Source of the DNA: an uncultured Clostridia bacterium
GTDB lineage: Bacteria; Bacillota; Clostridia; Christensenellales; Borkfalkiaceae
NCBI GenBank assembly: GCA_947629845.1
Contig: CANRFD010000001.1
Location: forward strand, 1 to 35,309
Reading direction: 5' to 3'
Length of the DNA stretch: 35,309 nt
How positions within the stretch are numbered: position 1 is the first letter of the stretch; every line of letters starts with the position of its first letter. This document shows, one piece after another, positions 1-26,722 of this stretch. Position numbers and translations under genes: made by a program. The notes below the pieces were generated by a model that worked only from the letters and a program-made list of their open reading frames with translations, was not told the origin of the DNA and ran no database searches.

Positions 1-3000
1 GATGATGGCCTGCACTTCGCCCGAGCTCAAAAAGGCGCCCTGCACGCGGAGGCAGTTGAACATGCCCTCGGTGCGGAAGAGCATATCGCCGTTGCCGAGC
101 AGCTTTTCCGCCCCCGTCTCGTCGAGAATGGTGCGGGAGTCCACTTCCTGAATGACGCGGAAGGCGATACGCGTGGGCAGGTTGCCCTTGATGACGCCCG
201 TGATGACGTCCACCGAGGGACGCTGCGTGGCGATGACGAGGTGGATGCCCGCGGCGCGCGCCTTTTGGGCGATGCGCTGGATGCGCTCCTCGATGTTCTT
301 CTTCTCGACCGACATGAGATCGGCGAGCTCGTCTACGACGATGACGATCTTGGGCAGTTTTGCCTCGTCCTCGGTGCGGACGCTGTTGTATTCGTCCACG
401 TTGCGGACGGTGATGTGCTGTTCCCTCGTCTTTTGTTCGAAGAGGCGGTATCTGCGCTCCATCTCCTCGATCGCCCACTTGAACGCCATGACCGCCTTCT
501 GCGCGTCGGCGATGATCTCGTTGATCATGAGATGGGGCAGCCCGTCGAACACAGCGAACTCCACCTTCTTCGGGTCGATGAGAATGAGCCGCAGATCCTC
601 GGGGGAATATTTGCAGATCAGGCTGATGAGCATCGCGTTGAGACAGACCGACTTGCCCGAGCCCGTCGACCCCGCGATGAGCAGGTGCTTCATCTTGGCG
701 ATGTTGCCGCACACGCTCTTATTTTCGACGTCCTTGCCGATGACGAACATCAGCGAGCCTTCCTTGGCGTTGACGTATTCGTCCGCCTCCAAAACGGAGC
801 GGATGCCGACGGTGGCGCGGTGCACGTTGGGGACTTCGATGGAGATGGTGCCCGACGCGGTGTTGGCGTACATATTCACGCCGTCGCGGGCGTGCAGGCG
901 AAGGGCGATCTCCTTGTCGCGCTTGATGACCGTTCCCACCGTGATGTTGCGGGGGATATCGATATCGTAACGGGTAACGGCGGGGCCCGTCGTCACCTTT
1001 ACGACCTCGGCGTCCACCTTGAAACCCGCGAGGGTATCCACGATGGTGGCGGTGTTGCGCTCGATCTCGTCCTGCGACATGTTTACGGTGTCGTCATACA
1101 CGCTGAAGTTCGCGGTGCTCGGCTTCACATACTCGCGGTAGATGTGCCTTGCGGGCGCGGGCGCAGGTTTTTCCTCCCCCGCGTCGAAGGACGAAGCGGA
1201 GTCGAACGAGCTGCGCGAAGAGGTGCGCGTGCGGGGCGTGCGGGGAGCGATCTCGGGTTCCTCGGCAAAGTCTCCCCCATCGGAAAAGTCATCGTCGTCG
1301 AAGAGGTCGGCGTCGCTGACGGGGGCGCGGAACACGCGGCTGTCGGGATCGGGCAGGTCGTTCTCCGCGGGGGCGCGGTAGCCGCCGTCGGGAGAGAGGT
1401 CGGACGGCGCGGCCGTGCGGGGGCTCTCCTGCGAAACGTCGGGCGGGATCCGCGACGCGGGCGGCGTCTCGGGTTGGTTAAAGCGGGAAGCCGGCGGGTT
1501 GTCGTCAAACGGGAGCGGCTTTTCGATGTGCGTGCGCTCCTCCAACGGGCGGGAGAACAGGCTTCTGAAGCCCGCCTCTCTGCCGGCGTTATCGATTTGT
1601 TCGGGCGGCGTTTCGGGTTGGGCGAAACGGGACGCAGGCGGCGTTTCGGGCTGAGCAAAACGCGACGCGGGCGGCGTTTCGGGTTGAGCGAAGCGCGAAG
1701 CGGGCGGCGTTTCGGGTTGGGCGAAACGCGACGCGGGCGGCGTTTCGGGTTGAGCGAAGCGCGAAGCGGGCGGCGTTTCGGGTTGGGCGAAACGCGAAGC
1801 GGGCGGCGTTTCGGGCTGAGCAAAACGCGATGCGGGCGGCGTTTCGGGCTGCTGCGGACGGGGCGCGGGTTCATCGTACACATTGGGCTGCGAGGAGAAC
1901 TCGGGCTCTACGTCGTGGGCGTAGTAGTTGCGGTTTGCGGGCTCCGCGGGTTCCTGCGGGGCGCGGTAGGAAGGCGTCTGGGTGTAGTTGGCGTCGTAAT
2001 CTTCCTGCACGGGGTAGGAATAGCCGCCGTCGGCGTGCGGGCGTTCCTCCGTGACCTTGCGCGGGAAGGCGGGACGGGGCTCCTCCGCATGGGCGGCGTA
2101 GCTCTCCGAATACCCAAGGGGCGCGGAGGGCGCAGCGGGCGGCGTATTTGCGGGCGGGGCGTAGGAAGTTGCGGGCGGCGTGTAGGGCGCGGGGCCGCTT
2201 CCGCCCGATCCCCCCACGACGTTGCTGCCGCGGGCATGGGTGTTGAAATAGGAGTCCCTATCGTAGATGAGATTGGAGCGGTAGTTGGAGGCGGGGTCGC
2301 TGCCGAACAGGATCTCCCGCCCTTCCGCCGCCCTGTCGTATGCGGGGCGCTGCGCTGCGGCACGGGGCTGCTCGGGAGCCGCATAGGGCTGCGGCGACTG
2401 CGGCATCTGCGCCCGCGCGGGATCGGGAAGATCGCCGAACTGCATCGCGCCGGGGTAGGGACGAGCCCCCTCCGTGCGAACGTCGGCGGCGGGCGTTTCG
2501 CTGTGGGCGGCCCTCGGGCGGGCGGAGCGCTTCATCCGCTCGCGAAGGGGTGTGGCGCGCAGGAAGAAATACACCGCAAGCACCGTGAGCAGCGAGAAGA
2601 ACACATAGGCGCCGACGTCGGTGACGAGCGCGCAGACGGGGAAGGCGACGATGCCGAGAATGACGCCCCCGCCCGTGGAATTTGCGGCACCGCTCTCCGC
2701 AGCATGCCAGCAGGCCGACATGTAGCCGCCGAAGCCGAGTTCGGCATAGGAGGGCGCCGTTGCGACGTGCACGATGAAGAACGCCGCCAACGCCACGAGG
2801 GCGCCGCGCAGCACGAGCTTCAAGTCGATGGGGCTCTTCCCGATGACGAGCGAAAGAGAGAGATAGGCGATAAGCAGCAGCGCCGGATAGGCGGCAAAGC
2901 CCAACGCGCCGCAAAAGAAGGCCGTGATCGCCAGCCCCACGTCTCCGAAGAGATAGGGGCCCGTGACCGCGATCAAGAAAGCGATCGTGGAGAAGAGCAG

Positions 3001-3084
3001 CAGCGTCATACCGACCGTCTCCCGCGAAATCATCTTGCTCTTTTTTTCTTTCTGTTCATCCTTTCCCCGACCGAACCCGTTCAC
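1..3084 (-). CDS. ftsK: DNA translocase FtsK/SpoIIIE, with the 3' end running off the window at position 1. N-terminal membrane domain, long Pro/Gln-rich linker, C-terminal motor domain.
   Basis: The minus-strand frame is open from 3084 to 1 (translated by eye, no stops); it is absent from the ORF track because it has no in-window stop. The N-terminus reads VNGFGRGKDEQKEKKSKMISRETVGMTLLLFSTIAFLIAV, followed by further hydrophobic helices. The motor domain has Walker A LLIAGSTGSGKSV (about 640-680), Walker B LPKIVIVVDELADLM, and IHLVIATQRPSVDVITG. The GTG at 3084 has GGAGG 7 nt upstream; in-frame ATGs at 3033 and 3009 are alternative starts. Confidence 0.9.
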   Translation of the reverse strand, partial: MNGFGRGKDEQKEKKSKMISRETVGMTLLLFSTIAFLIAVTGPYLFGDVGLAITAFFCGALGFAAYPALLLIAYLSLSLVIGKSPIDLKLVLRGALVALAAFFIVHVATAPSYAELGFGGYMSACWHAAESGAANSTGGGVILGIVAFPVCALVTDVGAYVFFSLLTVLAVYFFLRATPLRERMKRSARPRAAHSETPAADVRTEGARPYPGAMQFGDLPDPARAQMPQSPQPYAAPEQPRAAAQRPAYDRAAEGREILFGSDPASNYRSNLIYDRDSYFNTHARGSNVVGGSGGSGPAPYTPPATSYAPPANTPPAAPSAPLGYSESYAAHAEEPRPAFPRKVTEERPHADGGYSYPVQEDYDANYTQTPSYRAPQEPAEPANRNYYAHDVEPEFSSQPNVYDEPAPRPQQPETPPASRFAQPETPPASRFAQPETPPASRFAQPETPPASRFAQPETPPASRFAQPETPPASRFAQPETPPASRFAQPETPPEQIDNAGREAGFRSLFSRPLEERTHIEKPLPFDDNPPASRFNQPETPPASRIPPDVSQESPRTAAPSDLSPDGGYRAPAENDLPDPDSRVFRAPVSDADLFDDDDFSDGGDFAEEPEIAPRTPRTRTSSRSSFDSASSFDAGEEKPAPAPARHIYREYVKPSTANFSVYDDTVNMSQDEIERNTATIVDTLAGFKVDAEVVKVTTGPAVTRYDIDIPRNITVGTVIKRDKEIALRLHARDGVNMYANTASGTISIEVPNVHRATVGIRSVLEADEYVNAKEGSLMFVIGKDVENKSVCGNIAKMKHLLIAGSTGSGKSVCLNAMLISLICKYSPEDLRLILIDPKKVEFAVFDGLPHLMINEIIADAQKAVMAFKWAIEEMERRYRLFEQKTREQHITVRNVDEYNSVRTEDEAKLPKIVIVVDELADLMSVEKKNIEERIQRIAQKARAAGIHLVIATQRPSVDVITGVIKGNLPTRIAFRVIQEVDSRTILDETGAEKLLGNGDMLFRTEGMFNCLRVQGAFLSSGEVQAII
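1604..1868 (-). repeat. Eight tandem copies (last one partial) of a 33-bp unit inside the ftsK linker, encoding a QPETPPASRFA peptide repeat
   Basis: The motif ggcggcgtttcggg recurs at 1604, 1637, 1670, 1703, 1736, 1769, 1802 and 1835, an exact 33-nt period. In the ftsK frame this gives seven exact QPETPPASRFA units. A degenerate copy (NPPASRFNQPETPPASRIPP) lies near 1440-1500. Confidence 0.9.
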
Positions 3085-3138
3085 GATAATTCCTCCGTAT
3101 GTCCCCTTACGGGGACACCGCGTATTTTTTCACCTTAC

Positions 3139-3410: not shown

Positions 3411-4514
3411 TCAGGCCTCGGGCTCGATCTTCTTGCCGGTGGCCTTGATCTCCTTCGCGGCGATGAGCTCGTCGCGGGTGAGCGCGGGCACTTCGGTATC
3501 CTTGGGCGCGGTCTTGCCCTTCTCCAAGCCGTTCTCCTCGGCAAGGCGGGCGATGAGCACCTTTGCGTACTTGATGCGGCGCGCGGAGTCCACTTTGAAC
3601 AGCATGGGGGTCGCGGCGAAGCGCTTCATGCCCGAAACGTCCTTCCCGCGGTACTTGGTGCCTTCAAATTCCTTGGGGTCGAGCGCGAGCGCGATGCACA
3701 GCTTCTTGCCCTTGAACAGGATGGCGGCGATGCGCGTTCTGCTGACGCTCACGTTCTGCTGGCGGCGGCTGTCTCTGCGGCGCATCTTCTTGTAGCTGCC
3801 GATCTCGGTGACGAGCTCGGAATAGTAGCTCTTGATCTCCTCGGGGGCGAGCACGAGGCGCGCCTTGAAGGAGTAGGAATAGCGCACGCTGTACACCTCT
3901 TCGTCGTGCTCTGCGCCCAATACGCCGAGCGCTTCGCGAAGCGCCGGGCTCATCTGCCTGACGATGAGCGATTCGCCCGCAACGTCGGGGCGGACGGACG
4001 GCGCGCTCTCCCTCTCCTCGGGCTCGGTGGCGGCGACTTCCGCATAGACAGGCTCTGTTTCGGGCTCCGCTTCGGGCTCGTTTTCCGCGACAGGTTGCTC
4101 TTCCGCGGCCTCTTCAACCACTTCAACGGCTTCCTCTTCTGCGGCTTCTTCCTCGATCTCCTCGGCAACCTCTTCGGTCTCCTCCTCTTCGGGTTCCGCT
4201 TCGGCGACCTCCTCGGTCTCCTCGACAGCTTCCTCTTCGGGCTCCTCGGCGATTTCTTCCTCTTCGCCCTCTTCCTCGGCTTCTTCAGCCTCTTCTTCGG
4301 CCGTCTCCTCGGCGACGGGCTCCGCTACGGGCGCAGCCTCTGCGGGCTCCTCGGCCTCTTCGGCCTCCTCTGCGGGCTCCTCCGCGGCCTGCGCCTTCGC
4401 CTCCGCGCGCCTCCCGGACGCCTTCTTCACGGCGTAAGACAGCGCGATCAGCCCCACGATCGCGGCGACTACGACGACGATGATGACAATGGAAATGATC
4501 GTACCCGTTTCCAT
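3411..4514 (-). CDS. Hypothetical membrane-anchored protein: N-terminal TM helix, a Glu-rich acidic linker of roughly 150 aa, and a basic C-terminal domain of roughly 190 aa
   Basis: The ATG at 4514 has AAGGGGG upstream. The TM helix is IISIVIIVVVVAAIVGLIALSY, followed by KKASGRR, which suggests the C-terminus is cytoplasmic. A long EEAEE-type tract follows. The C-terminal part (YSFKARLVLAPEEIKSYYSELV...LCIALALDPKEF...KYAKVLIARL) looks globular and is rich in K/R. I recognise no family. Confidence 0.75.
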   Translation of the reverse strand: METGTIISIVIIVVVVAAIVGLIALSYAVKKASGRRAEAKAQAAEEPAEEAEEAEEPAEAAPVAEPVAEETAEEEAEEAEEEGEEEEIAEEPEEEAVEETEEVAEAEPEEEETEEVAEEIEEEAAEEEAVEVVEEAAEEQPVAENEPEAEPETEPVYAEVAATEPEERESAPSVRPDVAGESLIVRQMSPALREALGVLGAEHDEEVYSVRYSYSFKARLVLAPEEIKSYYSELVTEIGSYKKMRRRDSRRQQNVSVSRTRIAAILFKGKKLCIALALDPKEFEGTKYRGKDVSGMKRFAATPMLFKVDSARRIKYAKVLIARLAEENGLEKGKTAPKDTEVPALTRDELIAAKEIKATGKKIEPEA

Positions 4515-4557: not shown

Positions 4558-4586
4558 ATTATATCGCTTTTTTGTCGAAAAAGCAA
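4558..4586 (-). promoter_or_regulatory. Putative promoter of the 3411-4514 gene (TTGCTT-17-TATAAT)
   Basis: The minus strand reads TTGCTTtttcgacaaaaaagcgaTATAAT, about 40 nt upstream of the ATG. Confidence 0.45.
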
Positions 4587-4649: not shown

Positions 4650-5408
4650 CTATACCATGCTCTCGAGAATGAGCTTATCCGCGACAAGTGCGATAAATTC
4701 GCTGTTCGTCGGCTTCTCCGTGCCGATGTAGACGCGTGCGCCGAAGATGGCGTTCACCGCGTCGATGCGCCCGCGGTTCCACGCGACTTCGATGGCGTGG
4801 CGGATGGCGCGTTCCACCTTGCTGGCGGAGGTGTTGAACCGTTCGCCGATGATGGGATACAGTCCCTTCGTCACATTATTGATGATATGGGGGTCGTTTA
4901 CCGCCATTTTTATGCCCTCGCGCAGGTAGTTGTAGCCCTTGATGTGCGGCGGGATGCCGATGGAGATGAAGATGTTGGAAATGCGCTCGTCGAGGGAGCC
5001 CGGGCGGCGGCGTTCGAACTTGTCGTGGGTGCCGACCGCCTCTGGCCCCGCCGAAAGTTCCACCGCGCGGCTGCCCACGATCTCCGCGGAGACGGGCTTC
5101 ATGAAGTAGTACCGCGCCCCGAGGGCAATCGCACGGTTGATAATGGCGTCGTCGGAAAAGTTGCCGAGTACGATGAAGTCCGTCTTTTTGCCGCTGTGCT
5201 TTGCCTCTTCGAGAACGGTAAAACCGTCCATGTTTTTCAGGAACAAGCTGACGACTGTGACGTTGGGAGAAAATTTATCGAGAAGTTTGAGCCCCTCTTC
5301 CCCGTCGCCCGTCACGCCGCAGACCTCGCAGTCCTTCTGTGCCGTAAAATATGCCGCAAGTTCGCCGGCAAATTGTTCGTTGCTTTCCATGATCAAAATT
5401 TTTTTCAT
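4650..5408 (-). CDS. spo0A: Spo0A-family sporulation master regulator, with an atypical receiver domain that lacks the phospho-acceptor Asp
   Basis: The C-terminal domain carries the Spo0A signature IGIPPHIKGYNYLREGI...NTSASKVERAIRHAIEVAW...KPTNSEFIALVADKL. The N-terminal 120 aa align without gaps to the B. subtilis Spo0A receiver. Key residues differ: ADDN becomes MESN, and LVLDIIMPHLDG becomes TVVSLFLKNMDG. Confidence 0.9.
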   Translation of the reverse strand: MKKILIMESNEQFAGELAAYFTAQKDCEVCGVTGDGEEGLKLLDKFSPNVTVVSLFLKNMDGFTVLEEAKHSGKKTDFIVLGNFSDDAIINRAIALGARYYFMKPVSAEIVGSRAVELSAGPEAVGTHDKFERRRPGSLDERISNIFISIGIPPHIKGYNYLREGIKMAVNDPHIINNVTKGLYPIIGERFNTSASKVERAIRHAIEVAWNRGRIDAVNAIFGARVYIGTEKPTNSEFIALVADKLILESMV

Positions 5409-5440: not shown

Positions 5441-5469
5441 ATTATAATACACGAAAAAAGATTTGTAAA
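5441..5469 (-). promoter_or_regulatory. Putative sigma-A type promoter of spo0A (TTTACA-17-TATAAT)
   Basis: The minus strand reads TTTACAaatcttttttcgtgtatTATAAT, about 30 nt upstream of the ATG at 5408. Confidence 0.45.
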
Positions 5470-5529
5470 GTCATTTTTGTACAAAATTCAAATATTATTT
5501 TACAAAATTCATCGATTTTTGTACAAAAA

Positions 5530-5536
5530 TGTCGAA
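5530..5536 (+). promoter_or_regulatory. Consensus Spo0A-binding 0A box (TGTCGAA) upstream of spo0A
   Basis: There is an exact TGNCGAA match at 5530-5536, directly abutting a TTTTTGTACAAAAA palindrome (5516-5529). Confidence 0.4.
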
Positions 5537-5603
5537 AACTGCTTTTTTGCGCTTTTTTCGCCGCCTTTTCGGGGGGAGACGGGCGGGAAGAGCTCTTGGG
5601 TTA

Positions 5604-5893
5604 CGCGTCATTCTGACGGGAGCGCAGCGACCGAAGAATCCCGATATGGAGAGTTCGGACTTCGTTGTTCGGGATCCTTCGCGGATAGGCGATTGCGGAC
5701 TGCGTACAGCAGCTCGGCTCAGGATGACGCGTTCCCCCTTGCGCGCGGGGCAGAATGACACGGTTACCCGTGCGCTCACAGGCGGGGCTGCCCACCCCCG
5801 TCACTTCGTGCCACCCCCTCCCGAGGAGGGGGCAACGTGGGCGTTCTCCCACGGAGGGGGCGGTAAAACAAGCGCGCGGGGCAGGATGACGTG
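5604..5893. repeat. Mosaic of short dispersed intergenic repeat motifs
   Basis: CAGRATGACRYG occurs three times in direct orientation (5719-5731, 5750-5762, 5881-5893) and once inverted (5604-5617). The hairpin CCCCCTCC-cga-GGAGGGGG at 5814-5832 matches the one at 3306-3324. Confidence 0.55.
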
Positions 5894-5936
5894 ATTATAT
5901 GCCGCGGCAGAACTATGGAGGCTTCTTTCCGCCCAA

Positions 5937-5962
5937 GCGAAAACCCGCGGCGGTGCCGCGGG
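5937..5962 (-). terminator. Rho-independent terminator of the ABC-F gene
   Basis: The minus strand has CCCGCGGC-acc-GCCGCGGG followed by TTTTCGCTT, about 65 nt after the stop at 6026. Confidence 0.7.
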
Positions 5963-6025
5963 CGCGTGTCCAATATATCCAAATTATAAATATCCCTGCC
6001 AAAAAGCCGCGTTGCAGCCCCACAA

Positions 6026-7603
6026 TCAGGCGTTTACGAGGTCGATATACTCGTCGAAGGTGACGTTCTTATCGAACACCTTCGTCCCGTCGAGCGCGAT
6101 GATGCGGTTGCAGACGGTGTTCATGAGCTCCTGGTCGTGCGAGGTAAGCAGCATGCAGCCCTTGAACGCCGTGAGCCCGTTGTTCAGCGAGGTGATGGAC
6201 TCGAGGTCGAGGTGGTTGGTGGGCTCGTCGAAGATCAGGAAATTCCCGCCCTCGAGCATCATTTTGGCGAGCATGCAGCGCACCTTTTCGCCGCCCGAGA
6301 GCACCTTGGCCTCCTTCAGCGCCTCCTCGCCCGAGAAGAGCATGCGCCCGAGCCAGCCGCGCAGGTATTCCTCGTAATGATCCTTGGAGAACTGCGACAG
6401 CCACTGCACGAGGGTGAGCGACACGCCCTCGAAAAATTCGTTGTTGTTGGTGGGGAAATAGGACGTCTCGATGGTCTTGCCCCACTTCACCGTGCCGGAG
6501 TCGGGCTCCTCCTTGCCCATCAGAATATCGTAGAGCATGGTGACGGAGGTAGATTTATCGGAAATGATGCCGATCTTCTCCCCCTTCTGCACCGTAAAGG
6601 AGACGTTCTCGAAGTATCCCCGCTTGGTCAGCCCCTCCACGGCGAGGATGTCGTTGCCGATCTCGCGCTCGAACTTGAAGTCGATGAAGGGGTACTTGCG
6701 CAGCGACGGCTTGAAGTCGGAGATGGTCAGCTTTTCCAGCTCCTTCTTGCGCGAAGTCGCCTGCCGCGATTTGCTTGCGTTCGCCGCGAACCGTGCAATG
6801 AACTCTTTCAGCTCGGCGGCACGCTGTTCGGCCTTCTTGTTGGCGTCCCGCTGCTGCCGCGCCATGAGCTGCGACGTCTGATACCAGAAGTCGTAGTTGC
6901 CGAGGTAGAGGTTGATCTTGCCGAAGTCGACGTCGCAGATGTGCGTGCACACCTTGTTCAGAAAGTGGCGGTTGTGCGAGACGATGATGATGGTGTTCTC
7001 GAAATCCATCAGGTAGTTTTCCAGCCAGCGCACCGTCTTTAAGTCGAGGTTGTTGGTGGGCTCGTCGAGAAGCAGCACGTCGGGATTGCCGAAGAGCGCC
7101 TGCGCGAGGAGCACGCGCACCTTCTGCTTGCCGTCGAGTTCCCCCATCGTGAGATAGTGGTATTCGCTCGGGATATCCAGCTCGTTGAGAAGGGTCTGCG
7201 CCTCGCTCTCCGCCTCCCAGCCGCCGAATTCCGCAAACTCCGCCTCGAGCTCCGCCGCCCGCACGCCGTCCTCTTCGGTAAATTCGGCATGGGCGTAGAG
7301 GGCGTCCTTCTCGTCCATGATGCGAACAAGCCGCTCGTGCCCCAGCATGACGGTGCGAAGAACGGTCTCAAAATCGTACTTGTTCTGGTTTTGCGCAAGG
7401 ACGGACATGCGCTCGTTCTTATCCAGCGTGACGTCCCCCTTGTTGGGTTCGATCTCGCCCGACAGCACCTTCAGAAAGGTGGACTTGCCCGCGCCGTTCG
7501 CACCGATGATGCCGTAGCAGTTCCCCTTGGTGAATTTTAAGTTGACGTCCTCGAACAGTTTTTTGCTTCCGTATTGTAGACTGACGCCGTTGACCTGTAA
7601 CAT
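6026..7603 (-). CDS. ABC-F family ATPase with two ABC cassettes and no TM domain (YbiT/EttA-like translation factor class)
   Basis: The protein starts MLQVNGVSLQYGSKKLF. It has two Walker A motifs (GANGAGKST in cassette 1, plus cassette 2), LSGGEK signatures, LLLDEPTNHLD-type Walker B motifs, and an Arg/Lys-rich inter-domain linker (QQRDANKKAEQRAAELKEFIARF). The ATG at 7603 has GAGAGG 5 nt upstream. The track ORF start at 7690 adds 29 non-conserved residues. Confidence 0.9.
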   Translation of the reverse strand: MLQVNGVSLQYGSKKLFEDVNLKFTKGNCYGIIGANGAGKSTFLKVLSGEIEPNKGDVTLDKNERMSVLAQNQNKYDFETVLRTVMLGHERLVRIMDEKDALYAHAEFTEEDGVRAAELEAEFAEFGGWEAESEAQTLLNELDIPSEYHYLTMGELDGKQKVRVLLAQALFGNPDVLLLDEPTNNLDLKTVRWLENYLMDFENTIIIVSHNRHFLNKVCTHICDVDFGKINLYLGNYDFWYQTSQLMARQQRDANKKAEQRAAELKEFIARFAANASKSRQATSRKKELEKLTISDFKPSLRKYPFIDFKFEREIGNDILAVEGLTKRGYFENVSFTVQKGEKIGIISDKSTSVTMLYDILMGKEEPDSGTVKWGKTIETSYFPTNNNEFFEGVSLTLVQWLSQFSKDHYEEYLRGWLGRMLFSGEEALKEAKVLSGGEKVRCMLAKMMLEGGNFLIFDEPTNHLDLESITSLNNGLTAFKGCMLLTSHDQELMNTVCNRIIALDGTKVFDKNVTFDEYIDLVNA

Positions 7604-7628
7604 GTGTACCTCTCTTGATTTCGGCGAA

Positions 7629-7658
7629 ATTATACCATATGCGGTGGGGTTCGGGCAA
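7629..7658 (-). promoter_or_regulatory. Putative promoter of the ABC-F gene (TTGCCC-18-TGgTATAAT, extended -10)
   Basis: The minus strand reads TTGCCCgaaccccaccgcatatggTATAAT, about 25 nt upstream of the ATG. Confidence 0.4.
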
Positions 7659-7726
7659 GTAAATTGAGCTACTTCCCTCCGCGTCCGCAAAAAATTCTCT
7701 GCCCCACGGGAAGGGGAGGCTCGTGC

Positions 7727-9904
7727 TTAAGGCTCGGAACGCTCGTAAATGCGGCCGGTATCACCCGTGACGAGCGCGTCGCGGATGGTCTCCTGCGGGG
7801 AATCCCATTCAAACACGGTGTCGTAACGGAAAAATCCGAGCGTTTGCCACACGCTGCCCTCGGGCAGGCTGAAAGACGTGAGCCGCTGGCAGCGGGAGAA
7901 GGCGTTCGGCTCGATGCGTACGACGCCGCCGGGCACGGCAATGGAAGTGAGCGTCGTACAGTTGCGGAAGAGTGAATCGGCGATGACCTCGAGCGAGGCA
8001 GGAAGATGCACTTCCGCAAGGCGGACGCACCCCTCGAAGGCGCGTGCGCCGATCTCCTGCACGCCGTCCGGAATGTGGACGGAGCGAAGCGCCGTGCAAC
8101 CCGAGAAGGCGTCCTCGCCGATGCGAAGAAGCGAATCGGGGATCTCCACCGCCTCGAGCACGTTCCCGCCCCTCTTCACGGGAGCGGAGAATTCTGTGAC
8201 GGGCAGTCCGTCGAGCTCCTCGGGGATGTCGAGTTCGCGCATGTCGTATTCCCGCACATAGACGGCAAGAGAGCCGTCCTCCTTGACGTCGTAGTAGAAG
8301 CCGTCCGCATAGCCGTCGTTCGCCGCCTGCACCGTGTAGAGGCGGGCACAGACGATGCCGAATACCGACACGGCGGCGACGATGAGCGCGAGCACCTTGA
8401 TGGCCATCACGATCACGCCGTTCTCACGGCCGTTCTCACGGTTGCGCTCGACGTAGTTCCATTCGTCCGCCATGCTGTACATTGTGCCGAATCCCACCAA
8501 CAGCGAGAAGGCGAAGTACACCCACAGCCAGTCGTGCATGTTGTCCGTAAACCAGCCGATGAGAATGCAGACCGCCGCAAGCACACCCACCGCGGCGAGC
8601 CCCACGGCGATGAAAACCGTACTCTTCCCGCGGAATTGCAGGAAATCAAAGGCGAAATGCAATAGGATGATGGCCGAGAGAATGCCTGTCATGACAAGGC
8701 AGATTTTTTCTTCGGGCGAACCCAAAACGACGCGCACGGCGTACGGCTCGGAGAGAAGGAACAAAAGCACCGCAAGCTCGGCAAGCCCCAGGATGACATG
8801 CACGGCGACGGTGAACGCGATATGCTTCTTCAAATACTCGCTCGTGCGTTCCAAAATACTTGTTTTGGCGACGTGCGCCTGCGCCGGCTTCGTCTTTTGA
8901 TTTTGTGTGCGCGCCCGTCTCTCCGCTTTCTCCCGCGCCGCAGAAGCGCGCGAGGCGTGCGAACTTTCTTTGCGCCCGCGGGCGAGCTCGCAACACCGCT
9001 TGACGTGATTTAATACCTTGGGGTAGGCGTCGGGCTTTGTGAAGTCTATCCCCTCCACCCTGCCGTTGCGCTGCGGCAAACGCTCGATGGGCGTGCCCTT
9101 GAACACGATCGTGAGCGCGTCGCTCTCCTTCTGCCTGCCGTCCGCAAGCTCAAGAAAGCGCATGTATTCGTTCTTCACCCACTTCGTCGTGAGATATTCC
9201 TCGCGGAAACAGACGAGGATCATGGCGGGCGACTTCACGAGGGCGTACAGAATGCGCGCCTCGTAGTCGGTACCGGTGCTGTGCGCCATCTCCGCCTCCG
9301 AATAGAAGGGACGAAGCCCCTGCTCCTTGAGATAGTCATAGAGCTTGTAGGCGGCGTGGCTGTCGGGCGTGCTCTCTCCGTTGGCGTCCGTTATCTTGGC
9401 GGAGATGAACACGTCGTAGTCCAGTCCGCGCTTTTGAAATTCGAAAAATTTGTTGCGGATGTCGTCGATCTCCGCACCGCGCTCCAAGTAGACGGCGCGC
9501 TGCTCGGCGTCGGCAAGGGAGAGGGCTCGGCAGAATTCCTCGCTCTCCGTAAACCGCTTCTTCGTGATAAGGTGGCAGATGGGATGCAGACGGGTCTCGT
9601 CGACGTCGTCGCGCAGATAGCGCACGCGGAAAAGCGCTTGCGCCATACCGAAATACGCCTCGGGTTCCTGCCTATCTAACTCCGCCGCCTTTTGATATGC
9701 GGAATACGCCTCGTCGAAGCGGCACATATCTATCTCATGTTCGCCGAGACGGAGCGCATCTAAAACGGCGGAGGAAGTCCCCCGCCGCGGCAGCGTCCAC
9801 CGCGAGTTGCAGTAGCGGCACCGCACGATCCCGCTCGCCGTGGAAATATCGAGCGGGGCGCCGCAATTTTTACATTGAAACGTAGCGCTTACCCAATCCG
9901 ACAC
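7727..9904 (-). CDS. Multidomain membrane protein: N-terminal zinc ribbon, TPR-like helical region, TIR domain, 5 predicted TM helices, and a C-terminal BspA-type leucine-rich repeat domain
   Basis: The zinc ribbon is CKNCGAPLDISTASGIVRCRYC. The TIR-like core is YDVFISAKITD...GLRPFYSEAEM...ILVCFREEYLTTKWVKNEYMRF (about 9060-9418). Five hydrophobic segments lie at about 8331-8822. The LRR_5-like repeats read IPDSLLRIGEDAFSGCTALRSVHIPDGVQEIGARAFEGCVRLAEVHLP (about 7730-8330). The start is placed at GTG 9904, which has AAGGAGA 9 nt upstream. The track start at 9955 falls inside the predicted promoter spacer. Confidence 0.85.
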   Translation of the reverse strand: MSDWVSATFQCKNCGAPLDISTASGIVRCRYCNSRWTLPRRGTSSAVLDALRLGEHEIDMCRFDEAYSAYQKAAELDRQEPEAYFGMAQALFRVRYLRDDVDETRLHPICHLITKKRFTESEEFCRALSLADAEQRAVYLERGAEIDDIRNKFFEFQKRGLDYDVFISAKITDANGESTPDSHAAYKLYDYLKEQGLRPFYSEAEMAHSTGTDYEARILYALVKSPAMILVCFREEYLTTKWVKNEYMRFLELADGRQKESDALTIVFKGTPIERLPQRNGRVEGIDFTKPDAYPKVLNHVKRCCELARGRKESSHASRASAAREKAERRARTQNQKTKPAQAHVAKTSILERTSEYLKKHIAFTVAVHVILGLAELAVLLFLLSEPYAVRVVLGSPEEKICLVMTGILSAIILLHFAFDFLQFRGKSTVFIAVGLAAVGVLAAVCILIGWFTDNMHDWLWVYFAFSLLVGFGTMYSMADEWNYVERNRENGRENGVIVMAIKVLALIVAAVSVFGIVCARLYTVQAANDGYADGFYYDVKEDGSLAVYVREYDMRELDIPEELDGLPVTEFSAPVKRGGNVLEAVEIPDSLLRIGEDAFSGCTALRSVHIPDGVQEIGARAFEGCVRLAEVHLPASLEVIADSLFRNCTTLTSIAVPGGVVRIEPNAFSRCQRLTSFSLPEGSVWQTLGFFRYDTVFEWDSPQETIRDALVTGDTGRIYERSEP

Positions 9905-9945
9905 GTTCGCCCGTCTCCTTTTTTCGCATTCGTAGTTTTGAGATA

Positions 9946-9974
9946 AGTATATCACATCCTGCTTTTGAAGTCAA
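9946..9974 (-). promoter_or_regulatory. Putative promoter of the TIR-LRR gene (TTGACT-17-TATACT)
   Basis: The minus strand reads TTGACTtcaaaagcaggatgtgaTATACT, about 40 nt upstream of GTG 9904. Confidence 0.5.
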
Positions 9975-11283: not shown

Positions 11284-12264
11284 CTATTTGGCCTGTTTTT
11301 TCCGCACCAGCCAGACGAGCAGATAGGAGAGCGCGGCGCCGATAAACAGCATCAAAACCGAGACCGCCCAATACCACGGGCTGGAATAGAGGTGGGAAAG
11401 CGACGGGGGCGCGTTCTGCACCGTGGTGAAATACACCGCCACGACGGAGCCCAAAACAAACCCCAGTATGGCAAAATGGGTGCCGCGGGGGAATTTCTCC
11501 AGCAAAAATTTCATGACCACGGAGACGGCATAGAAGCCGACGAGCACCCCCACGCCCGTGCACGCGAGCACGGCAATGGAGACGCCGACGTTCTGCCAGC
11601 GCAGCAAGTTGTCGGTGATGAGCTCGACAAGCGGCGTATAGTAGCCGAAGATGAGCAGGAGCATGGAGCCCGAGATGCCCGGCACGACGAGGGCGCAAGC
11701 CCCCGCCATTCCCACGACGACGAGCAAGAAGTAGCCCCCCACATCGAGGTGGAAAAGGTCGACATTCGCCCCCGTCGGCAGGAACAGCATGCACGCCGCA
11801 ATGATGCACGGAAGGGCAAAACTCACAGCGTTATGCCATTTTGGCTTCCCCTTCAGCTTTTCGGTGATGGAAGGGAGTCCGCCGAGGGAGAGCCCGACGA
11901 ACAGCGTTACCGTGGGGATGGGGTAGTTCGCAAGCCCCCACTGAATGGGGAACATCAGCGCGGCGATGCCCAAGACCATGCCGATTACAATGGGCAGAAG
12001 GAACAGAAAACTCTCCTTGAACTTTTTGAAGATCCCGACGATGCTGCCCACAAGTCTTTCGTAAATGCCGAGAATGGCCGCCACCGACCCGCCCGAAAAC
12101 CCGGGGATGATGAACGCAACGCCGATCGCCGCCCCGCGCAGCACGTTTGCGAGAAATTCCACAAATTTATTGGGCTTTTGGGGTGCGGGCGCAGGTTCAC
12201 CCTGTGCGGAGGGCGCTTCGGAGGCGGTTTCCGCCGTCCCTGCGGACTGTTTGTTTTCTTCCAT
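11284..12264 (-). CDS. DUF368 family polytopic membrane protein (undecaprenyl-phosphate translocase family)
   Basis: It has duplicated signature motifs IIPGFSGGSVA and VVPGISGSMLL and about 8 hydrophobic helices. A low-complexity 30-aa N-terminal extension is present. Confidence 0.85.
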   Translation of the reverse strand: MEENKQSAGTAETASEAPSAQGEPAPAPQKPNKFVEFLANVLRGAAIGVAFIIPGFSGGSVAAILGIYERLVGSIVGIFKKFKESFLFLLPIVIGMVLGIAALMFPIQWGLANYPIPTVTLFVGLSLGGLPSITEKLKGKPKWHNAVSFALPCIIAACMLFLPTGANVDLFHLDVGGYFLLVVVGMAGACALVVPGISGSMLLLIFGYYTPLVELITDNLLRWQNVGVSIAVLACTGVGVLVGFYAVSVVMKFLLEKFPRGTHFAILGFVLGSVVAVYFTTVQNAPPSLSHLYSSPWYWAVSVLMLFIGAALSYLLVWLVRKKQAK

Positions 12265-12357
12265 ACTGTTTTAAGTATATCATAGCCCCCGCCAAAATAC
12301 AACAAAAAATCAATTTATCGGCGAAAAAAAATGGAGGGCCCGCCTTTTTGCGGACTC

Positions 12358-12573
12358 TCAATAGTTTTTTCTGCCGAGCAAATAATCGATATCTTCGTGA
12401 AAATAATCCGCTATTTTGCAGAGATTTTCAAGCGAGACCTCCCGTTGACACAGCAAATACCGCGAGATCGTCGGCTGCGGAATGCCGACCCGTTTGGAGA
12501 ACTCCCGAACGGACAGCTCCCCTATCAGCTCCTTCAAATTTTGCGCAAACGTCTCCGAATATTTGGTTGCCAT
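12358..12573 (-). CDS. XRE-family helix-turn-helix transcriptional regulator (about 71 aa)
   Basis: The sequence MATKYSETFAQNLKELIGELSVREFSKRVGIPQPTISRYLLCQREVSLENLCKIADYF fits the Cro/CI-type HTH pattern. The start is uncertain: ATG 12573 is preferred, with 12591 and 12648 as alternatives. Confidence 0.75.
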   Translation of the reverse strand: MATKYSETFAQNLKELIGELSVREFSKRVGIPQPTISRYLLCQREVSLENLCKIADYFHEDIDYLLGRKNY

Positions 12574-12605
12574 ATGATTTTCCCATGCCATTTTACATAA
12601 AATGC

Positions 12606-12635
12606 TTGACGTGATACCGTTCGGTATTATATAAT
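12606..12635 (+). promoter_or_regulatory. Promoter of the LRR gene (TTGACG-18-TATAAT) with a 14-bp palindrome ATACCGTTCGGTAT in the spacer
   Basis: TTGACG is at 12606-12611 and TATAAT at 12630-12635. The perfect inverted repeat is at 12614-12627. GAGGAGG precedes the ATG at 12672. Confidence 0.5.
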
Positions 12636-12671
12636 TTGAGTTAATCAATTATCTATCGAGGAGGAAAGAAA

Positions 12672-13928
12672 ATGGGAGATACCAACGGGTTCCGCATTGA
12701 AAACGGGAAACTCATAAGTTATACCGGTGACGATTTGGAAATCATCATCCCGGACGAAGTGACGGAGATCGGCAGCAGCGTCTTTGCAAATTCCGGCGTG
12801 CGCAAGGTCGTCATCGGCGACTCGGTCAAAATTATCGGCTTCTGTGCGTTCAGAAATTGCAAAACACTCATGGAGGTCAGCCTTACAAACGGTTTGGAGG
12901 AAATCGGCGCGTCGGCATTTGAAGGCTGTGTCGGTTTGCAAAAAATTCATATCGGAGACTCGGTCAAGGCTATCGGTTCAGAGGCTTTCAAAAGTTGCAG
13001 GACGCTCATGGAAGTTTACCTGTCAAAGGACTTGGAAGAGATTAGCGCATCGGCGTTCGAAAGCTGTGCCAGTCTGCAAAAAATCTATGGCGGTTCCAAA
13101 ATAAAGCGCATCGGCGACGCTGCATTTCAAAAGTGCCCCATCGCGGAATTTGATTTCAGCAGCGTGACAAGTATTGGCGCAGAGGCCTTTTCCGATTGCA
13201 AGTTGACCGAAGTCACGTTCGGGCGCGGCCTCGCTTTTTTGGGGCGCAGCGCGTTTTCGGGTTGCTCAAATTTAACATCGGTAATCTTCGACGCCGACTC
13301 ACCGTTGGAAACGATTGAGGAACACGCATTCGAGAATTGCTCTGTAACAAATTTGCAGCTACCGTCACATTTGAAAAAAATCGGAGAACGTGCATTTCAC
13401 TACCCCGACAACTATAGAGTCACTCGAAAAGAAATTATCCTTCCCGACTCACTGAAGATCATCGAAGAGTATGCGTTTGACGATTCTAAATTTGAGCTGA
13501 TAATCATACCTTACGGTGTAACGCACATCGGCGCCAAAAGTTTTGATGAAGCATGGAAAATCGTCCTACCGGAAGTCTTTCGAGCTCAAATCTCCAACAT
13601 CGTTGGCTCTAATACGAAAGTAATTTACTATCAAACCGAGGAGCAATATGAAAGGCTCAAAGAATACGGCTTTTTAATGGATGGCGGAGATCTGATAAAA
13701 GTTGTAAGGAAACTCTCCTTAATCAACTTTCCGGACTTTGTAACGCGGATCTGCCGCGGCGCAATTGTTGACTGCGGCCTTTACAGCACCATGATCCCCG
13801 AAGATACCGTAATAGAAGAGGGCGCCTTCAACTGCCCCACTCTGAAGTATGTTACCGTTTCAAAGCAATACAAGAAAAAACGGAAACTGTACTTCGGCAA
13901 ATACAAAATCAAATACACTTTCATATAA
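12672..13928 (+). CDS. BspA-type leucine-rich repeat (LRR_5-like) protein with no signal peptide
   Basis: Units such as IGSSVFANSGVRKVVIGDSVKIIGFCAFRNCKTLMEVSL and EEIGASAFEGCVGLQKIHIGDSVKAIGSEAFKSCRTLMEVYL repeat along the protein. A strong SD is present. The gene is noticeably more A+T-rich than its neighbours. Confidence 0.85.
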   Translation: MGDTNGFRIENGKLISYTGDDLEIIIPDEVTEIGSSVFANSGVRKVVIGDSVKIIGFCAFRNCKTLMEVSLTNGLEEIGASAFEGCVGLQKIHIGDSVKAIGSEAFKSCRTLMEVYLSKDLEEISASAFESCASLQKIYGGSKIKRIGDAAFQKCPIAEFDFSSVTSIGAEAFSDCKLTEVTFGRGLAFLGRSAFSGCSNLTSVIFDADSPLETIEEHAFENCSVTNLQLPSHLKKIGERAFHYPDNYRVTRKEIILPDSLKIIEEYAFDDSKFELIIIPYGVTHIGAKSFDEAWKIVLPEVFRAQISNIVGSNTKVIYYQTEEQYERLKEYGFLMDGGDLIKVVRKLSLINFPDFVTRICRGAIVDCGLYSTMIPEDTVIEEGAFNCPTLKYVTVSKQYKKKRKLYFGKYKIKYTFI

Positions 13929-13935
13929 AAAACTA

Positions 13936-13960
13936 CTCCCGGACGGAACATGTTCGGGAG
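13936..13960. terminator. Bidirectional rho-independent terminator between the LRR gene and gdhA
   Basis: The hairpin is CTCCCG..GAACATGTTC..GGGAG. It is followed by CGGTTTTTTAT on the plus strand and by TAGTTTTTTA on the minus strand. Confidence 0.65.
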
Positions 13961-13986
13961 CGGTTTTTTATATTTTTTTCGTTGCC

Positions 13987-15543
<1,557 letters not shown>

Positions 15544-18066
15544 CTATCCGTCCGATCGTAAGATGAACTTCACCTCCGCGTCCTCTTCCGCCTGTACGGA
15601 GAAGGTGACGGCGGCGACGTCCGCGTCGGGTGCGGAGAGCCCGGTGTTCAGGGGGAAGCCTCCGTCGCGCCGCTTCACTTCAAAGGGCACGCCAACGCCG
15701 TTCACATACACGCACACGACGCGCCCCGCCCCCTTTACGAGGTGATATTTCACGGTGATCTCGCGGCGGGCAACGGCACGGGGGCCTGAAAACCGCCCTT
15801 CCGCCCCCTTGAAGCGCACGGCATAGGCATTCTCCCCGGGCAAATACTGCGCCGAATACCCGCTCTTTCTGAACTCCCCGAGCTTGTACGCCGTGGTCTC
15901 GCCGTCGTCCTCGTAGAGGTAGCCTTCGTCGCCGTCCGTCCCGGACGGGTAGAAGTCATAGACGAGTTTGGAGGGATCCTGCGCCTTGGTGGTCTGCGCC
16001 GCCCCGATGAGCGGGATGAGCGACCCGAGCCGCACAAAGAGGGGCATCGACCTGAGCCCGTACGCCTTTTTGATGACGCGCCTGCCCGCATAGACGGCGC
16101 CGTCGAATACGTCCAGCCACCTCCCCTCGGGAAGATAGACTTCGCGGGCGTTTCCCTCCCCCGTCTCCGCGGTATACAGCCCGAGAAAGGCTTCGCCGCC
16201 CGCCTGAAAGTAGAAGATCTCCAAGGTGTGTTCCACGCCGGGCTCGAGGTCGGCAAGCGCGTTGAGCGTCGCCGAGTGCATATTTTCATCCTTCAAAACG
16301 CATTTGCCGTCGAGGTAGACGGTCGCGCCGTCGTCGTTGCGTATGTACAGCCGTTCGGCGGCGTCGAGCACGATCTTGGTTCTGATCTTTGCCGAAAAGT
16401 CATAGACGGGAACGCCCTCCATAGGCGGTTCGTGGCGCAGATCCATGAACACGCTCTTCCAGACGGCGTGCGCGATGGGTTCGCCCTCCCACGCCCTGCC
16501 GCGGTAAAATTCCACCTCCACGGGCGCGGTGTAGTTTTTCTCGGCCAGCCGCTTGGGAACGGCCCCGCAGAGGGGCGCGATGAGAAGGTCTCTGCCGAGG
16601 AGATATTGGTTCCTGCACTTTGCCGCCCGCCTGTCATCGGGGTATTCGAGCGCAAGGGAACGGAACATGGGCACGCCCGTTTCGTACCCCTCCCGCGCGT
16701 TTGCGTACATGTAGGGCAGGAGGCGGTAGCGCAGCAGCGCGTATTCCCGCACGATGTCGAGCGTCTCTTCGTCATACAGCCACGGTTCGCGGTAGCGCTG
16801 CACGGAGTTGGTGCAGTGCGGGCGGAACACGGGCGAGAGCGTGCCGTATTGCATCCAGCGGATAAATTGCTCCTTGTCGGGATTGCCCGTGTGGCCGCCG
16901 CAGTCGGAATTCATATACCCGATACAGTTTTCCGAGCAGCGGACGAGGTTCTCCACCTCCTGCGCGAGCGAATAGGCGCAGCTGCCGATGTCCCCCGTCC
17001 ACTGGATGCCGTAGCGGTGGGAGGCGCTGTCCGCAATGCCGCGGTAGATGCCGTTGGAGATATCGACGACGTTCCCCATCACGACGGGGCGGCGGTAGAC
17101 CTGCGGATCGCCCGCGGCCTCCCTGTAAAAGCGCTCCGTGACGTCGTGATAGAGGTAGAGCCCCAGCGTCTCCCACTGCACGCTCTTGGTGGGCGAGACG
17201 AGGTGGGTGTGCCAATTCCTGTCGTACCACCACGTATCCAGCCCCATCTTCAGCAGCCTGCGCAGGTGCTTTTCGCGATAGGCGATCTCCCGGGGGGCGA
17301 ACACGCTTGCGCCGCGGACGGGTTCGGGGTGGTCGTTGAACATCACCTCGACGCCGCGGCCGTGCGCGAACGCGAGAAACTTCTTCATGTCGGGGAACAA
17401 GTTCCTGTTGATCTCGTAGCCCGTGCCGCTCTCGGCGACGCGCCAGTCGGTATCGATCACGAGATTGTCGAGCGGAACGCCGTATTTCTCGTAGTCAAAG
17501 ATGACCTGTTTGGCCTCTTTTTCGCTGTAAGCGTAGTATTTGGAGTTCCAGCCGCCGAGGGTGGCAAGGCGCACCAGCTCGCTCCTGCCCGTCAGGGCGA
17601 CGTAGAGGCGGCGGAGCTTTTTTGCGTCCCCGTCCGCAAAGATCAGGTAGAGATCCTTCACCCGCTCATAGATGCGGAAGTTCCCCTCCCTCGCCGCGGA
17701 ATAGCCGCCCGCGGGAACGAGGATGCGCGGACAGTCGGAGAGCGCAAAGACGGACGGCGTCCGCTGCGGCGGCGGAAGTTCGCCGCTGTTTTTGATGCGC
17801 TTGTAGCGGTAGACGGTCTTGCCGTCCCGCTCGACGCGGAGCCCGGAAAAGGCCTCCCCTTCGGGAAGATACACCGTATAGTCGCCTATACAGAGTACGT
17901 TTTCCTCGAGGGCGTAGTCGGGCGTCTCCCCCGCGAGGCCTGCGCGGTCGGGGATGAAGAAGGTGTTTTCGTCGCAAAATCCGCCGCGGAAGGCGTGTTC
18001 TATGCGCAAAACGTCCCGCCCCAAAAAACTTATACGGAAATTTCCGAAAAACAAGGTATTCTGCAT
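15544..18066 (-). CDS. Glycoside hydrolase family 31 enzyme with a PA14-like insert, predicted cytoplasmic (no signal peptide)
   Basis: GH31-like blocks are present: LVIDTDW, GLDTWWYDRNW (nucleophile region), GIQWTGDI, MQYGTLSPVFRPH and YLPEGRWLDVFDG...MPLFVRLGSLIPL. The PA14-like segment reads GATVYLDGKCVLKDE...HTLEIFYFQAGGEAFLGLY. The SD is GGAGAG, and the start lies 1 nt after the upstream stop. Confidence 0.88.
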   Translation of the reverse strand: MQNTLFFGNFRISFLGRDVLRIEHAFRGGFCDENTFFIPDRAGLAGETPDYALEENVLCIGDYTVYLPEGEAFSGLRVERDGKTVYRYKRIKNSGELPPPQRTPSVFALSDCPRILVPAGGYSAAREGNFRIYERVKDLYLIFADGDAKKLRRLYVALTGRSELVRLATLGGWNSKYYAYSEKEAKQVIFDYEKYGVPLDNLVIDTDWRVAESGTGYEINRNLFPDMKKFLAFAHGRGVEVMFNDHPEPVRGASVFAPREIAYREKHLRRLLKMGLDTWWYDRNWHTHLVSPTKSVQWETLGLYLYHDVTERFYREAAGDPQVYRRPVVMGNVVDISNGIYRGIADSASHRYGIQWTGDIGSCAYSLAQEVENLVRCSENCIGYMNSDCGGHTGNPDKEQFIRWMQYGTLSPVFRPHCTNSVQRYREPWLYDEETLDIVREYALLRYRLLPYMYANAREGYETGVPMFRSLALEYPDDRRAAKCRNQYLLGRDLLIAPLCGAVPKRLAEKNYTAPVEVEFYRGRAWEGEPIAHAVWKSVFMDLRHEPPMEGVPVYDFSAKIRTKIVLDAAERLYIRNDDGATVYLDGKCVLKDENMHSATLNALADLEPGVEHTLEIFYFQAGGEAFLGLYTAETGEGNAREVYLPEGRWLDVFDGAVYAGRRVIKKAYGLRSMPLFVRLGSLIPLIGAAQTTKAQDPSKLVYDFYPSGTDGDEGYLYEDDGETTAYKLGEFRKSGYSAQYLPGENAYAVRFKGAEGRFSGPRAVARREITVKYHLVKGAGRVVCVYVNGVGVPFEVKRRDGGFPLNTGLSAPDADVAAVTFSVQAEEDAEVKFILRSDG

Positions 18067-18067
18067 A

Positions 18068-19027: not shown

Positions 19028-19039
19028 ACGTTCTCCTTT

Positions 19040-22801: not shown

Positions 22802-22813
22802 CGTTCTCCCTCC

Positions 22814-24718: not shown

Positions 24719-24733
24719 CTCTCTCCTCCTTGA

Positions 24734-26711: not shown

Positions 26712-26722
26712 ACGCGCCTCCT

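Follow-up and report, generated by a model that had tools for sequence, protein, structure and literature searches.

We focus here on the spo0A gene in a 35,309-nucleotide stretch of DNA (contig CANRFD010000001.1; the whole stretch is called the window below) from an uncultured Clostridia bacterium of the Borkfalkiaceae, and in particular on the receiver domain of the encoded Spo0A, which lacks the aspartate that normally accepts the phosphoryl group. A first-pass annotation of the window had pointed out this substitution and had argued that such a protein would have to be controlled in some other way. The genomic evidence considered here comes from the window and from the spo0A-flanking loci of relatives. 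The gene, its domains and the codons of the altered pocket are as follows, with residue numbers of the window protein unless B. subtilis numbering is indicated.

4650..5408, minus strand: spo0A coding sequence, 252 amino acids, ATG start, TAG stop included (open reading frame list, TIGR02875, PF00072, PF08769)
5055..5408, minus strand: aspartate-less receiver domain (REC), residues 1-118, (beta-alpha)5 fold (Response_reg, AlphaFold2, Foldseek, dN/dS)
4671..4982, minus strand: Spo0A_C DNA-binding and transactivation domain, residues 143-246 (PF08769, 1lq1, Foldseek, dN/dS)
4779..4823, minus strand: recognition helix SKVERAIRHAIEVAW, residues 196-210 (alignment to B. subtilis)
5382..5387, minus strand: codons GAA AGC of E8-S9, at the acid pair D10-D11 of B. 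subtilis (VADDN there, IMESN here; alignment to 9phz and 1dz3)
5247..5249, minus strand: codon AGC of S54, at the phospho-acceptor D56 of B. subtilis, C-terminal end of beta3 (alignments, AlphaFold2)
5160..5165, minus strand: codons of G82-N83, at the switch Thr-Ala pair T86-A87 of B. subtilis (MLTAF there, VLGNF here), end of beta4 (alignment, AlphaFold2)
5094..5099, minus strand: codons of K104-P105, the kept pocket Lys-Pro, K108-P109 of B. subtilis (ILKP there, FMKP here; alignment)

Judged by the full-length equivalog model, the 252-residue open reading frame (ORF) is Spo0A. The profile search of the protein gave 243.3 bits on TIGR02875, the NCBIfam Spo0A equivalog (cutoff 200), over residues 3-250, 133 bits on Pfam PF08769 Spo0A_C (cutoff 25; residues 143-246) and 49.1 bits on Pfam PF00072 Response_reg (cutoff 30.2; residues 4-109), and the relatives of the protein are named Spo0A by NCBI. 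In its two-domain architecture of REC and Spo0A_C, and in matching at equivalog level, it is like the Spo0A of B. subtilis, G. stearothermophilus and clostridia, for which the receiver structures 1qmp, 1dz3 and 9phz and the DNA-binding domain structures 1lq1 and 1fc3 served for comparison. The DNA-binding domain had been described as almost canonical, and rightly so: HMMER matches it to 1lq1 with an E value of 2.9e-39, the identity over the Foldseek alignment to that structure is about 57-59%, and the recognition helix differs from that of B. subtilis (SRVERAIRHAIEVAW) by a single conservative R-to-K change and is constant in 50 of 50 clade members.

It is the receiver that departs from the canonical protein. 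HMMER alignments to the reference receivers of B. subtilis (9phz) and G. stearothermophilus (1dz3/1qmp) run from residue 3 to about residue 72 without a gap, in agreement with the gapless N-terminal alignment proposed earlier, and place E8, S9, S54, G82 and K104 at D10, D11, D56, T86 and K108 of B. subtilis. The Glu-Ser pair at D10-D11 is thus recovered in the alignments to 9phz and 1dz3, as is the Ser at D56, which HMMER and MAFFT alignments place at the same AGC codon, with VLVLDIIMPHLDG of B. subtilis facing VTVVSLFLKNMDG of the window. The Gly that had been placed at T84 is also present (G82, codon 5165-5163); its number needs correction, as the residue replaced is T86 of B. subtilis by sequence count and T84 belongs to G. 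stearothermophilus. The lysine (K104, codon 5099-5097) had been singled out as the sole retained pocket residue, and so it is, the acidic residue at the first position now being Glu; of the acid pocket and acceptor Asp that mark Spo0A, this Lys alone survives, along with an acidic side chain at the first position. The domain is thus an aspartate-less receiver (ALR), with the REC fold and a PF00072 match and with no Asp at the acceptor position. An alternative alignment that would bring an Asp to that position is ruled out, as HMMER alignments to two PDB receivers and three MAFFT runs concur; the motifs flanking the acceptor (PxV...L.L....DG) are in register, and residues 50-60 contain no Asp. 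A sequencing error at codon 54 is likewise ruled out by the presence of the same residue in more than 190 independently assembled relatives.

Two sets of relatives were compared. The first consists of the 120 closest proteins from a collection of 5.8 billion proteins, with identities of 70-90% and from many separate assemblies; the second consists of 81 spo0A genes from species-level loci (80 returned; L-numbered below) in metagenome-assembled genomes (MAGs), retrieved with patterns that were derived from the window protein and would miss most canonical spo0A copies. These MAGs come from rabbit, chicken, mouse, sheep and other guts and are labelled uncultured Clostridia, Candidatus Gallimonas or 'Christensenellaceae'; Gallimonas we take to belong to the Borkfalkiaceae of GTDB. 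The closest locus (L001) is 90% identical, and the window therefore represents a further species of that group. Among the 120 closest proteins, E8 and S54 are each found in 118 (the two exceptions at position 54 being one N and one G), N83 in 119, and G82 and K104-P105 in all, with Y101 also kept, while position 9 is S in 105 and G or A in the remainder. The 81 genes of the second set encode Ser at the acceptor position in 75 cases, Asn in five and Gly in one, with the rest of the signature the same. An alignment against related Clostridia, which had been suggested as a check, thus finds the substitution to be lineage-wide, with Asp in none of the 81 genes, and to be under selection.

This selection can be read at several levels. 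By the Nei-Gojobori method, applied to about 1,900 gene pairs, dN/dS has a median of 0.19 in the receiver, as compared with 0.35 in the linker and 0.07 in the DNA-binding domain; the receiver compared with its four closest relatives gives 0.07-0.10. The degenerate pocket positions are the best-conserved part of REC, with a mean entropy of 0.30 versus 1.01 for the whole domain: E8, N10, S54, L55, L57, G82, N83, K104 and P105 show little or no variation, and among regions of the domain, conservation is highest between beta4 and beta5 (FIVLGNFSDD.IINRAI.LGARYY.MKP). As both the receiver and its pocket are under selection, the receiver domain evidently still works, and on these comparisons the loss of the Asp is neither a sequencing error nor gene decay. 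An AlphaFold2 model, with 50 clade members as input, has a mean pLDDT of 81 and of approximately 90 in the receiver (about 85-95), where the (beta-alpha)5 arrangement is kept, with elements from E2-7 to H108-118; beta3 comprises residues 50-54 and has S54 at its end, G82 ends beta4, and K104 follows beta5. Foldseek aligns the model with the phosphorylated Spo0A receiver 1qmp at a TM score of 0.90 and with the Spo0A-DNA complex 1lq1 at 0.91, the range for the DNA-binding domain being 0.87-0.92. Both Spo0A folds are intact in this model.

From response-regulator chemistry, a receiver that has neither the acceptor Asp nor the metal-binding Asp is not phosphorylated by a histidine kinase or a phosphorelay. 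As Ser stands in for both D11, which binds Mg2+, and D56, and Gly for the switch Thr, activation through Asp phosphorylation should therefore be impossible, and, given the encoded residues, Asp phosphorylation of the window Spo0A would be excluded on chemical grounds. The earlier conclusion that the protein must be controlled by something other than Asp phosphorylation thus stands, since the substitution is both lineage-wide and selected.

ALR domains are already known as a class, with RitR, ChxR, HP1043, FrzS and AmiR as further examples; here, the ALR is of the Spo0A type and is fixed across a family of gut bacteria. A parallel in control is offered by CmrT of Clostridioides difficile (the CmrRST system), a response regulator that binds DNA, contains a pseudo-receiver and is regulated through its expression instead of by phosphorylation. 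CmrT differs from the window Spo0A in having another output domain, no link to Spo0A or sporulation, and phase-variable control of its promoter. Compared with the ALRs surveyed by Maule et al. 2015 (PMC4395418), the window receiver is typical in having kept the first acidic residue (as Glu), the Lys and an aromatic residue (Y101) and in having lost the second acidic residue and the Thr/Ser; in the same survey, Ser replaces the acceptor Asp in 15% of ALRs. It is unlike the surveyed ALRs in its output domain, Spo0A_C, and in that an entire family has become fixed for the ALR form, atop a developmental programme. The main text of that survey mentions Spo0A only as an example of Asp-to-Glu mutants, and its supplementary table gives for Response_reg~Spo0A_C the figures 7 and 391 (Firmicutes), which we take to mean 7 ALRs among 391. 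Beyond this one table line on Spo0A-type ALRs, a natural Asp-less Spo0A is undescribed in the literature searched.

In order to place the substitution in its history, a deeper search covered 1.84 billion cluster representatives at 50% identity, and a rough neighbour-joining (NJ) tree was built from the matches (P-numbered). In this tree, the proteins with the signature E-[SGA]-[SG]-G-N, the window protein among them, form a monophyletic clade, whose deepest members, P0138 and P0224, carry Gly in place of the acceptor. In its sister group, D11 is gone and D56 mostly kept; this group includes Candidatus Coproplasma, in which about 80 of 120 proteins have the signature E/D-S-N-S-N, with Asn at the acceptor position. 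Other relatives carry E-S-D-S-G or E/Q-R-D-S-E/D, in which the acceptor is present and the second acidic residue already gone. Read in its simplest form, the history appears to begin with the loss of D11, followed by two or more losses of D56, one of which gave the Ser of the present clade and another the Asn of Coproplasma. The Coproplasma Spo0A, from a genus placed in Christensenellales/Borkfalkiaceae by Gilroy et al. (PMC8035907), is thus of the same family and architecture as the window Spo0A and shares the loss of D11 and D56, while its Asn acceptor and its retained switch Ser/Thr mark an independent resolution of the same loss.

Loss of the acceptor extends beyond these two groups. Among the 120 full-length Spo0A-like representatives nearest the query (from P0121-P0270), 31 have no acceptor Asp (nine G, nine E, six S, four N, and one each of Q, L and Y), a proportion to be read with the facts that the ranking favours similarity to an Asp-less query and that some may be paralogues. 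They are scattered over the rough NJ tree and therefore seem to have arisen many times. The same search returned four metagenomic proteins from outside the window, P0122, P0127, P0133 and P0155, of 390-450 residues, which consist of three to four tandem Spo0A_C domains and have no receiver; P0122 reaches 404 bits on TIGR02875, in four stretches.

We turn to the spo0A promoter region, where the following elements are predicted, together with a further 0A box downstream of the gene.

5441..5469, minus strand: sigma-A-type promoter of spo0A, TTTACA-17 nt-TATAAT, 11 of 12 consensus matches (consensus scan)
5475-5486, 5496-5507 (imperfect) and 5517-5528, no strand: three TTTTGTACAAAA palindromes, 21 bp apart, directly upstream of the -35 element
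5530..5536, plus strand: consensus 0A box TGTCGAA, about 125 nt upstream of the spo0A start (motif scan)
4570..4581, plus strand: perfect extended 0A box TTTTGTCGAAAA in the promoter region of an acidic membrane-protein gene (3411-4514; motif scan)

As in canonical spo0A genes, a consensus 0A box lies upstream of the gene itself, here as a predicted site of autoregulation. Of 77 loci, 44 have an exact 0A box at a fixed position between -160 and -100, compared with an expectation of 0.007 per interval searched, and the sigma-A promoter is conserved across the 77 loci. The three phased TTTTGTACAAAA palindromes, on the other hand, set this promoter apart from the canonical one. With at most one mismatch, the motif precedes spo0A in 69 of 81 loci, in 134 copies altogether, as compared with six matches in the other approximately 840 kb. 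Furthermore, a 98-nt block from -130 to -33 averages 72% identity in 2,926 locus pairs, as opposed to 47.5% for the four-fold degenerate sites of the gene; farther from the gene, the loci can hardly be aligned. The promoter block recurs in L001-L080, L083 and L084. Two central bases distinguish the palindrome from the extended 0A box TTTGTCGAAAA, and it is 0A-box-like at nine of 11 positions; together with the adjacent 0A box, it forms TGTACAA-AAA-TGTCGAA, two 7-mers 10 bp apart, which we take to be the tandem site to which two Spo0A domains are bound in 1lq1. This layout of a 0A box and phased palindromes suggests cooperative autoregulation. Within 250 nt downstream of spo0A, no 0A box is found in either L001 or L004, which makes the significance of the box at 4570-4581 doubtful. 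A similar layout is seen in two loci of the sister group, L083, which has D56 and a perfect palindrome, and L084, which has Asn and more degenerate copies and encodes P0121, a protein that groups with named Coproplasma proteins; both loci are already without D11.

A further observation concerns the intergenic region upstream. Between the ABC-F gene and spo0A, the window has 617 nt compared with about 180 nt in L001, and positions 5598-5897 hold approximately 300 nt of GC-rich direct and inverted repeats (units such as GGGCAGAATGACACG), which may be a small repetitive insertion. An Rfam scan of the window returned no match.

Taken together, we give an about even chance to the reading that this is an ALR Spo0A which works without Asp phosphorylation and whose activity is set mainly by the amount made, through its own promoter and autoregulation. 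First of all, the receiver would be locked in one conformation, probably an active-like one. Second, it would be kept as a dimerization or inter-domain module that enables the canonical DNA-binding domain to occupy 0A boxes. Third, the decision to activate would be shifted from phosphorylation to the quantity of Spo0A made, with spo0A transcribed from the conserved sigma-A promoter behind the 0A box and the three phased TTTTGTACAAAA putative sites. Finally, autoregulation would be cooperative, possibly with the participation of another DNA-binding regulator. Control by expression level had been among the options offered by the first-pass annotation, and it gains support from the unusually conserved promoter; the mechanism just outlined is what we infer. 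Also counted in favour of control by amount is that promoter and gene recur as a unit in one MAG, Lapin-008__bin9, in which a cassette of 1,010 bp (5733-6742 in each of L060 and L061) occurs twice at 97.5% identity, with unrelated flanks and with both copies Asp-less; the pair is either a recent duplication or the product of a two-strain bin.

The surroundings of the gene bear on whether such a Spo0A still serves sporulation. In the window, the order is a popT-like transporter, a 442-residue ORF, a TPR-TIR-LRR protein, an ABC-F ATPase (6026-7690), spo0A, the acidic membrane protein and ftsK/spoIIIE, and across loci the recurrent order is popT-like / ABC-F / spo0A / ftsK-spoIIIE / miaB / pgsA / cinA / recA, so that in the window and in most loci spo0A is preceded by the ABC-F ATPase gene and followed by ftsK/spoIIIE. 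The latter yields only short minus-strand ORFs in the window; a frameshift is ruled out by a single tblastn segment that spans 3105..1, and the gene therefore runs off the window start. The acidic membrane protein (3411-4514) was considered as a conserved partner of Spo0A and rejected, as it is present in three of about 84 loci, is confined to the closest relatives and matches no family. In six divergent related genomes, sporulation genes were identified upstream of the Asp-less spo0A.

L006 1555-3076, L011 970-2440, L013 1486-2950 and L027 3-1137: spoIIGA-sigE pair (profile searches)
L025 241-942 and L045 1569-2270: sigK, encoding pro-sigma-K (NF004471)

The spoIIGA-sigE pair lies 3-4 kb upstream of spo0A, and sigK about 5 kb upstream. 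SigE scores 358 bits against a cutoff of 339 and SigK 289 bits against a cutoff of 252 (NF004471), while SpoIIGA, at 90 bits, is below its cutoff, yet this is its sole family match; all are intact ORFs. In these genomes with an Asp-less spo0A, mother-cell sigma factors of sporulation are thus retained intact, which lends indirect support to sporulation in these organisms. Among its ORFs of at least 150 residues, the window offers no counterpart of spoIIGA-sigE or sigK; a low-GC LRR gene lies instead between the popT-like gene and gdhA. No exact 0A box is found upstream of spoIIGA in L006, L011 or L013, where there is only a relaxed form, TGCCGAA, and a conserved hairpin. This hairpin, perfect over 10 bp (GGCATATTCC-GAC-GGAATATGCC), lies about 90 nt upstream of spoIIGA in these three loci, is preceded by the TGCCGAA and followed by T6 and TATAAT, and remains conserved when the gene upstream is a different one; a role as terminator or in spoIIG regulation is possible.

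Several points weigh against control by the amount of Spo0A made. First, the promoter layout is found in L083, which still bears D56, and is therefore older than the loss of D56 and not tied to that loss. Second, the conservation of the pocket fits the sensing of a ligand or partner equally well. Third, spoIVB, the usual upstream neighbour of spo0A in Bacilli and Clostridia, is not beside spo0A at any locus examined, and no Peptidase_S55 is found in L081 or L082. Fourth, among window ORFs of at least 150 residues, smaller ORFs not having been screened, spo0A is the sole sporulation gene. Finally, a machine-learning survey, SpoMAG, classed most Christensenellales/Borkfalkiaceae MAGs as non-sporulating (PMC12536801).

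The second of these points leads to the alternative that survives best, although we consider it rather unlikely, namely that the pseudo-receiver is still a sensor, whose degenerate pocket or alpha4-beta5-alpha5 face binds a small molecule or partner and thereby gates DNA binding. There are precedents for sensing by pseudo-receivers in AmiR-AmiC, in JadR1 with its antibiotic ligand and in WhiI-BldM. The near-invariance of the pocket residues, which exceeds that of the rest of REC, and the location of the best-conserved stretch between beta4 and beta5 are what such sensing would call for, and according to PMC4395418, ALRs mostly keep the first acidic residue, the Lys and the aromatic switch residue, and several of them sense ligands or partners. 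The same conservation, however, is expected if the pocket merely locks an active-like conformation, and no conserved neighbour gene presents itself as a partner: at the loci examined, no kinase or other conserved regulator or partner gene was found adjoining spo0A, the flanks vary, and the downstream acidic protein occurs in three loci only.

The last three points raise the alternative that the lineage no longer sporulates and that Spo0A is now a phosphorylation-independent regulator of stationary-phase, surface or metabolic genes, any sporulation genes being relics. This we regard as improbable. The small size of Coproplasma genomes, 1.4-1.7 Mb (PMC8035907), would agree with it, as would the SpoMAG classification, the missing spoIVB neighbour and the lack of a further sporulation gene among the larger window ORFs. 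Against it, spoIIGA, sigE and sigK are intact in the six divergent genomes, with SigE and SigK above their NCBIfam cutoffs, and the DNA-binding domain is almost frozen, as its dN/dS attests. Furthermore, 40 sporulation genes covering stages II-V were reported for Borkfalkia ceftriaxensis by Hildebrand et al. (PMC6839795, supplement).

Phosphorylation of the substituted Ser had also been proposed at the outset, and a Hanks-type kinase acting on Ser54, or on another Ser, Thr or Tyr, as an on-switch that replaces the Asp would account for the Ser at the acceptor position in nearly all close relatives (118 of 120 proteins, 75 of 81 locus genes). Otherwise unchanged members of the clade, however, have Asn (five loci) or Gly (one locus) at this position, as do the deep members P0138 and P0224 with Gly and most Coproplasma proteins of the sister clade with Asn, so that an obligatory phosphorylation of Ser54 is disfavoured; with no kinase gene adjoining spo0A at the loci examined, we consider this alternative very improbable. 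The idea that the protein is a paralogue beside a canonical, phosphorylatable Spo0A, which it would modulate by competition for 0A boxes or by forming heterodimers, can draw on the Asp-less representatives, some of them maybe paralogues, and on the one MAG with two copies, and is the least probable of all, given that the equivalog cutoff is passed, that relatives are named Spo0A by NCBI, that the chromosomal context from ABC-F to recA recurs, that both copies in the two-copy MAG are Asp-less and 97.5% identical, and that the 80 loci are all Asp-less, though query-derived patterns would miss most canonical copies.

Other parts of the window can be described briefly. The 742-residue protein encoded at 7727-9955 (minus strand) combines TPR repeats, a TIR_2 domain (36 bits) and a BspA-type LRR_5 region (90 bits); its TIR domain may have a defence or NADase function. 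Positions 12001-14000 form a low-GC island (0.47 compared with about 0.60 for the window), probably horizontally acquired, in which the ORF 12672-13928 (plus strand) encodes a BspA/HupY-like leucine-rich-repeat surface protein. The minus-strand block at 15544-35298 encodes glycoside-hydrolase-like proteins, sugar ABC transporter permeases and very large proteins of 1,253 and 1,478 residues that match no family, and looks like a polysaccharide-utilization cluster.

To our knowledge, phosphorylated Spo0A is the accepted trigger of sporulation in every Bacillus and Clostridium that has been studied, and input from kinases or a phosphorelay is regarded as universal. If activity is indeed set by amount, then it is conceivable, and we put it forward tentatively and with some doubt, that the Borkfalkiaceae, both the Gallimonas-type clade with Ser and Coproplasma with Asn, start endospore formation with a Spo0A that is never phosphorylated, a promoter switch made of the 0A box and the palindromes having replaced the kinase or phosphorelay. 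With about a quarter of the diverse nearest Spo0A-like representatives lacking the acceptor Asp, uncultured Clostridia could commonly have a Spo0A that works independently of phosphorylation. Genome surveys take the presence of spo0A as a marker of spore formation; in MAG surveys, the presence or absence of spo0A alone is thus an unsafe predictor of kinase-controlled sporulation. The locus may offer a natural experiment in which a response-regulator switch has been rewired into a dosage or autoregulatory switch, with the conserved promoter as a concrete and testable handle, and these abundant bacteria of animal guts, Borkfalkia being reported also from humans, must either use a different input into sporulation or have repurposed Spo0A.

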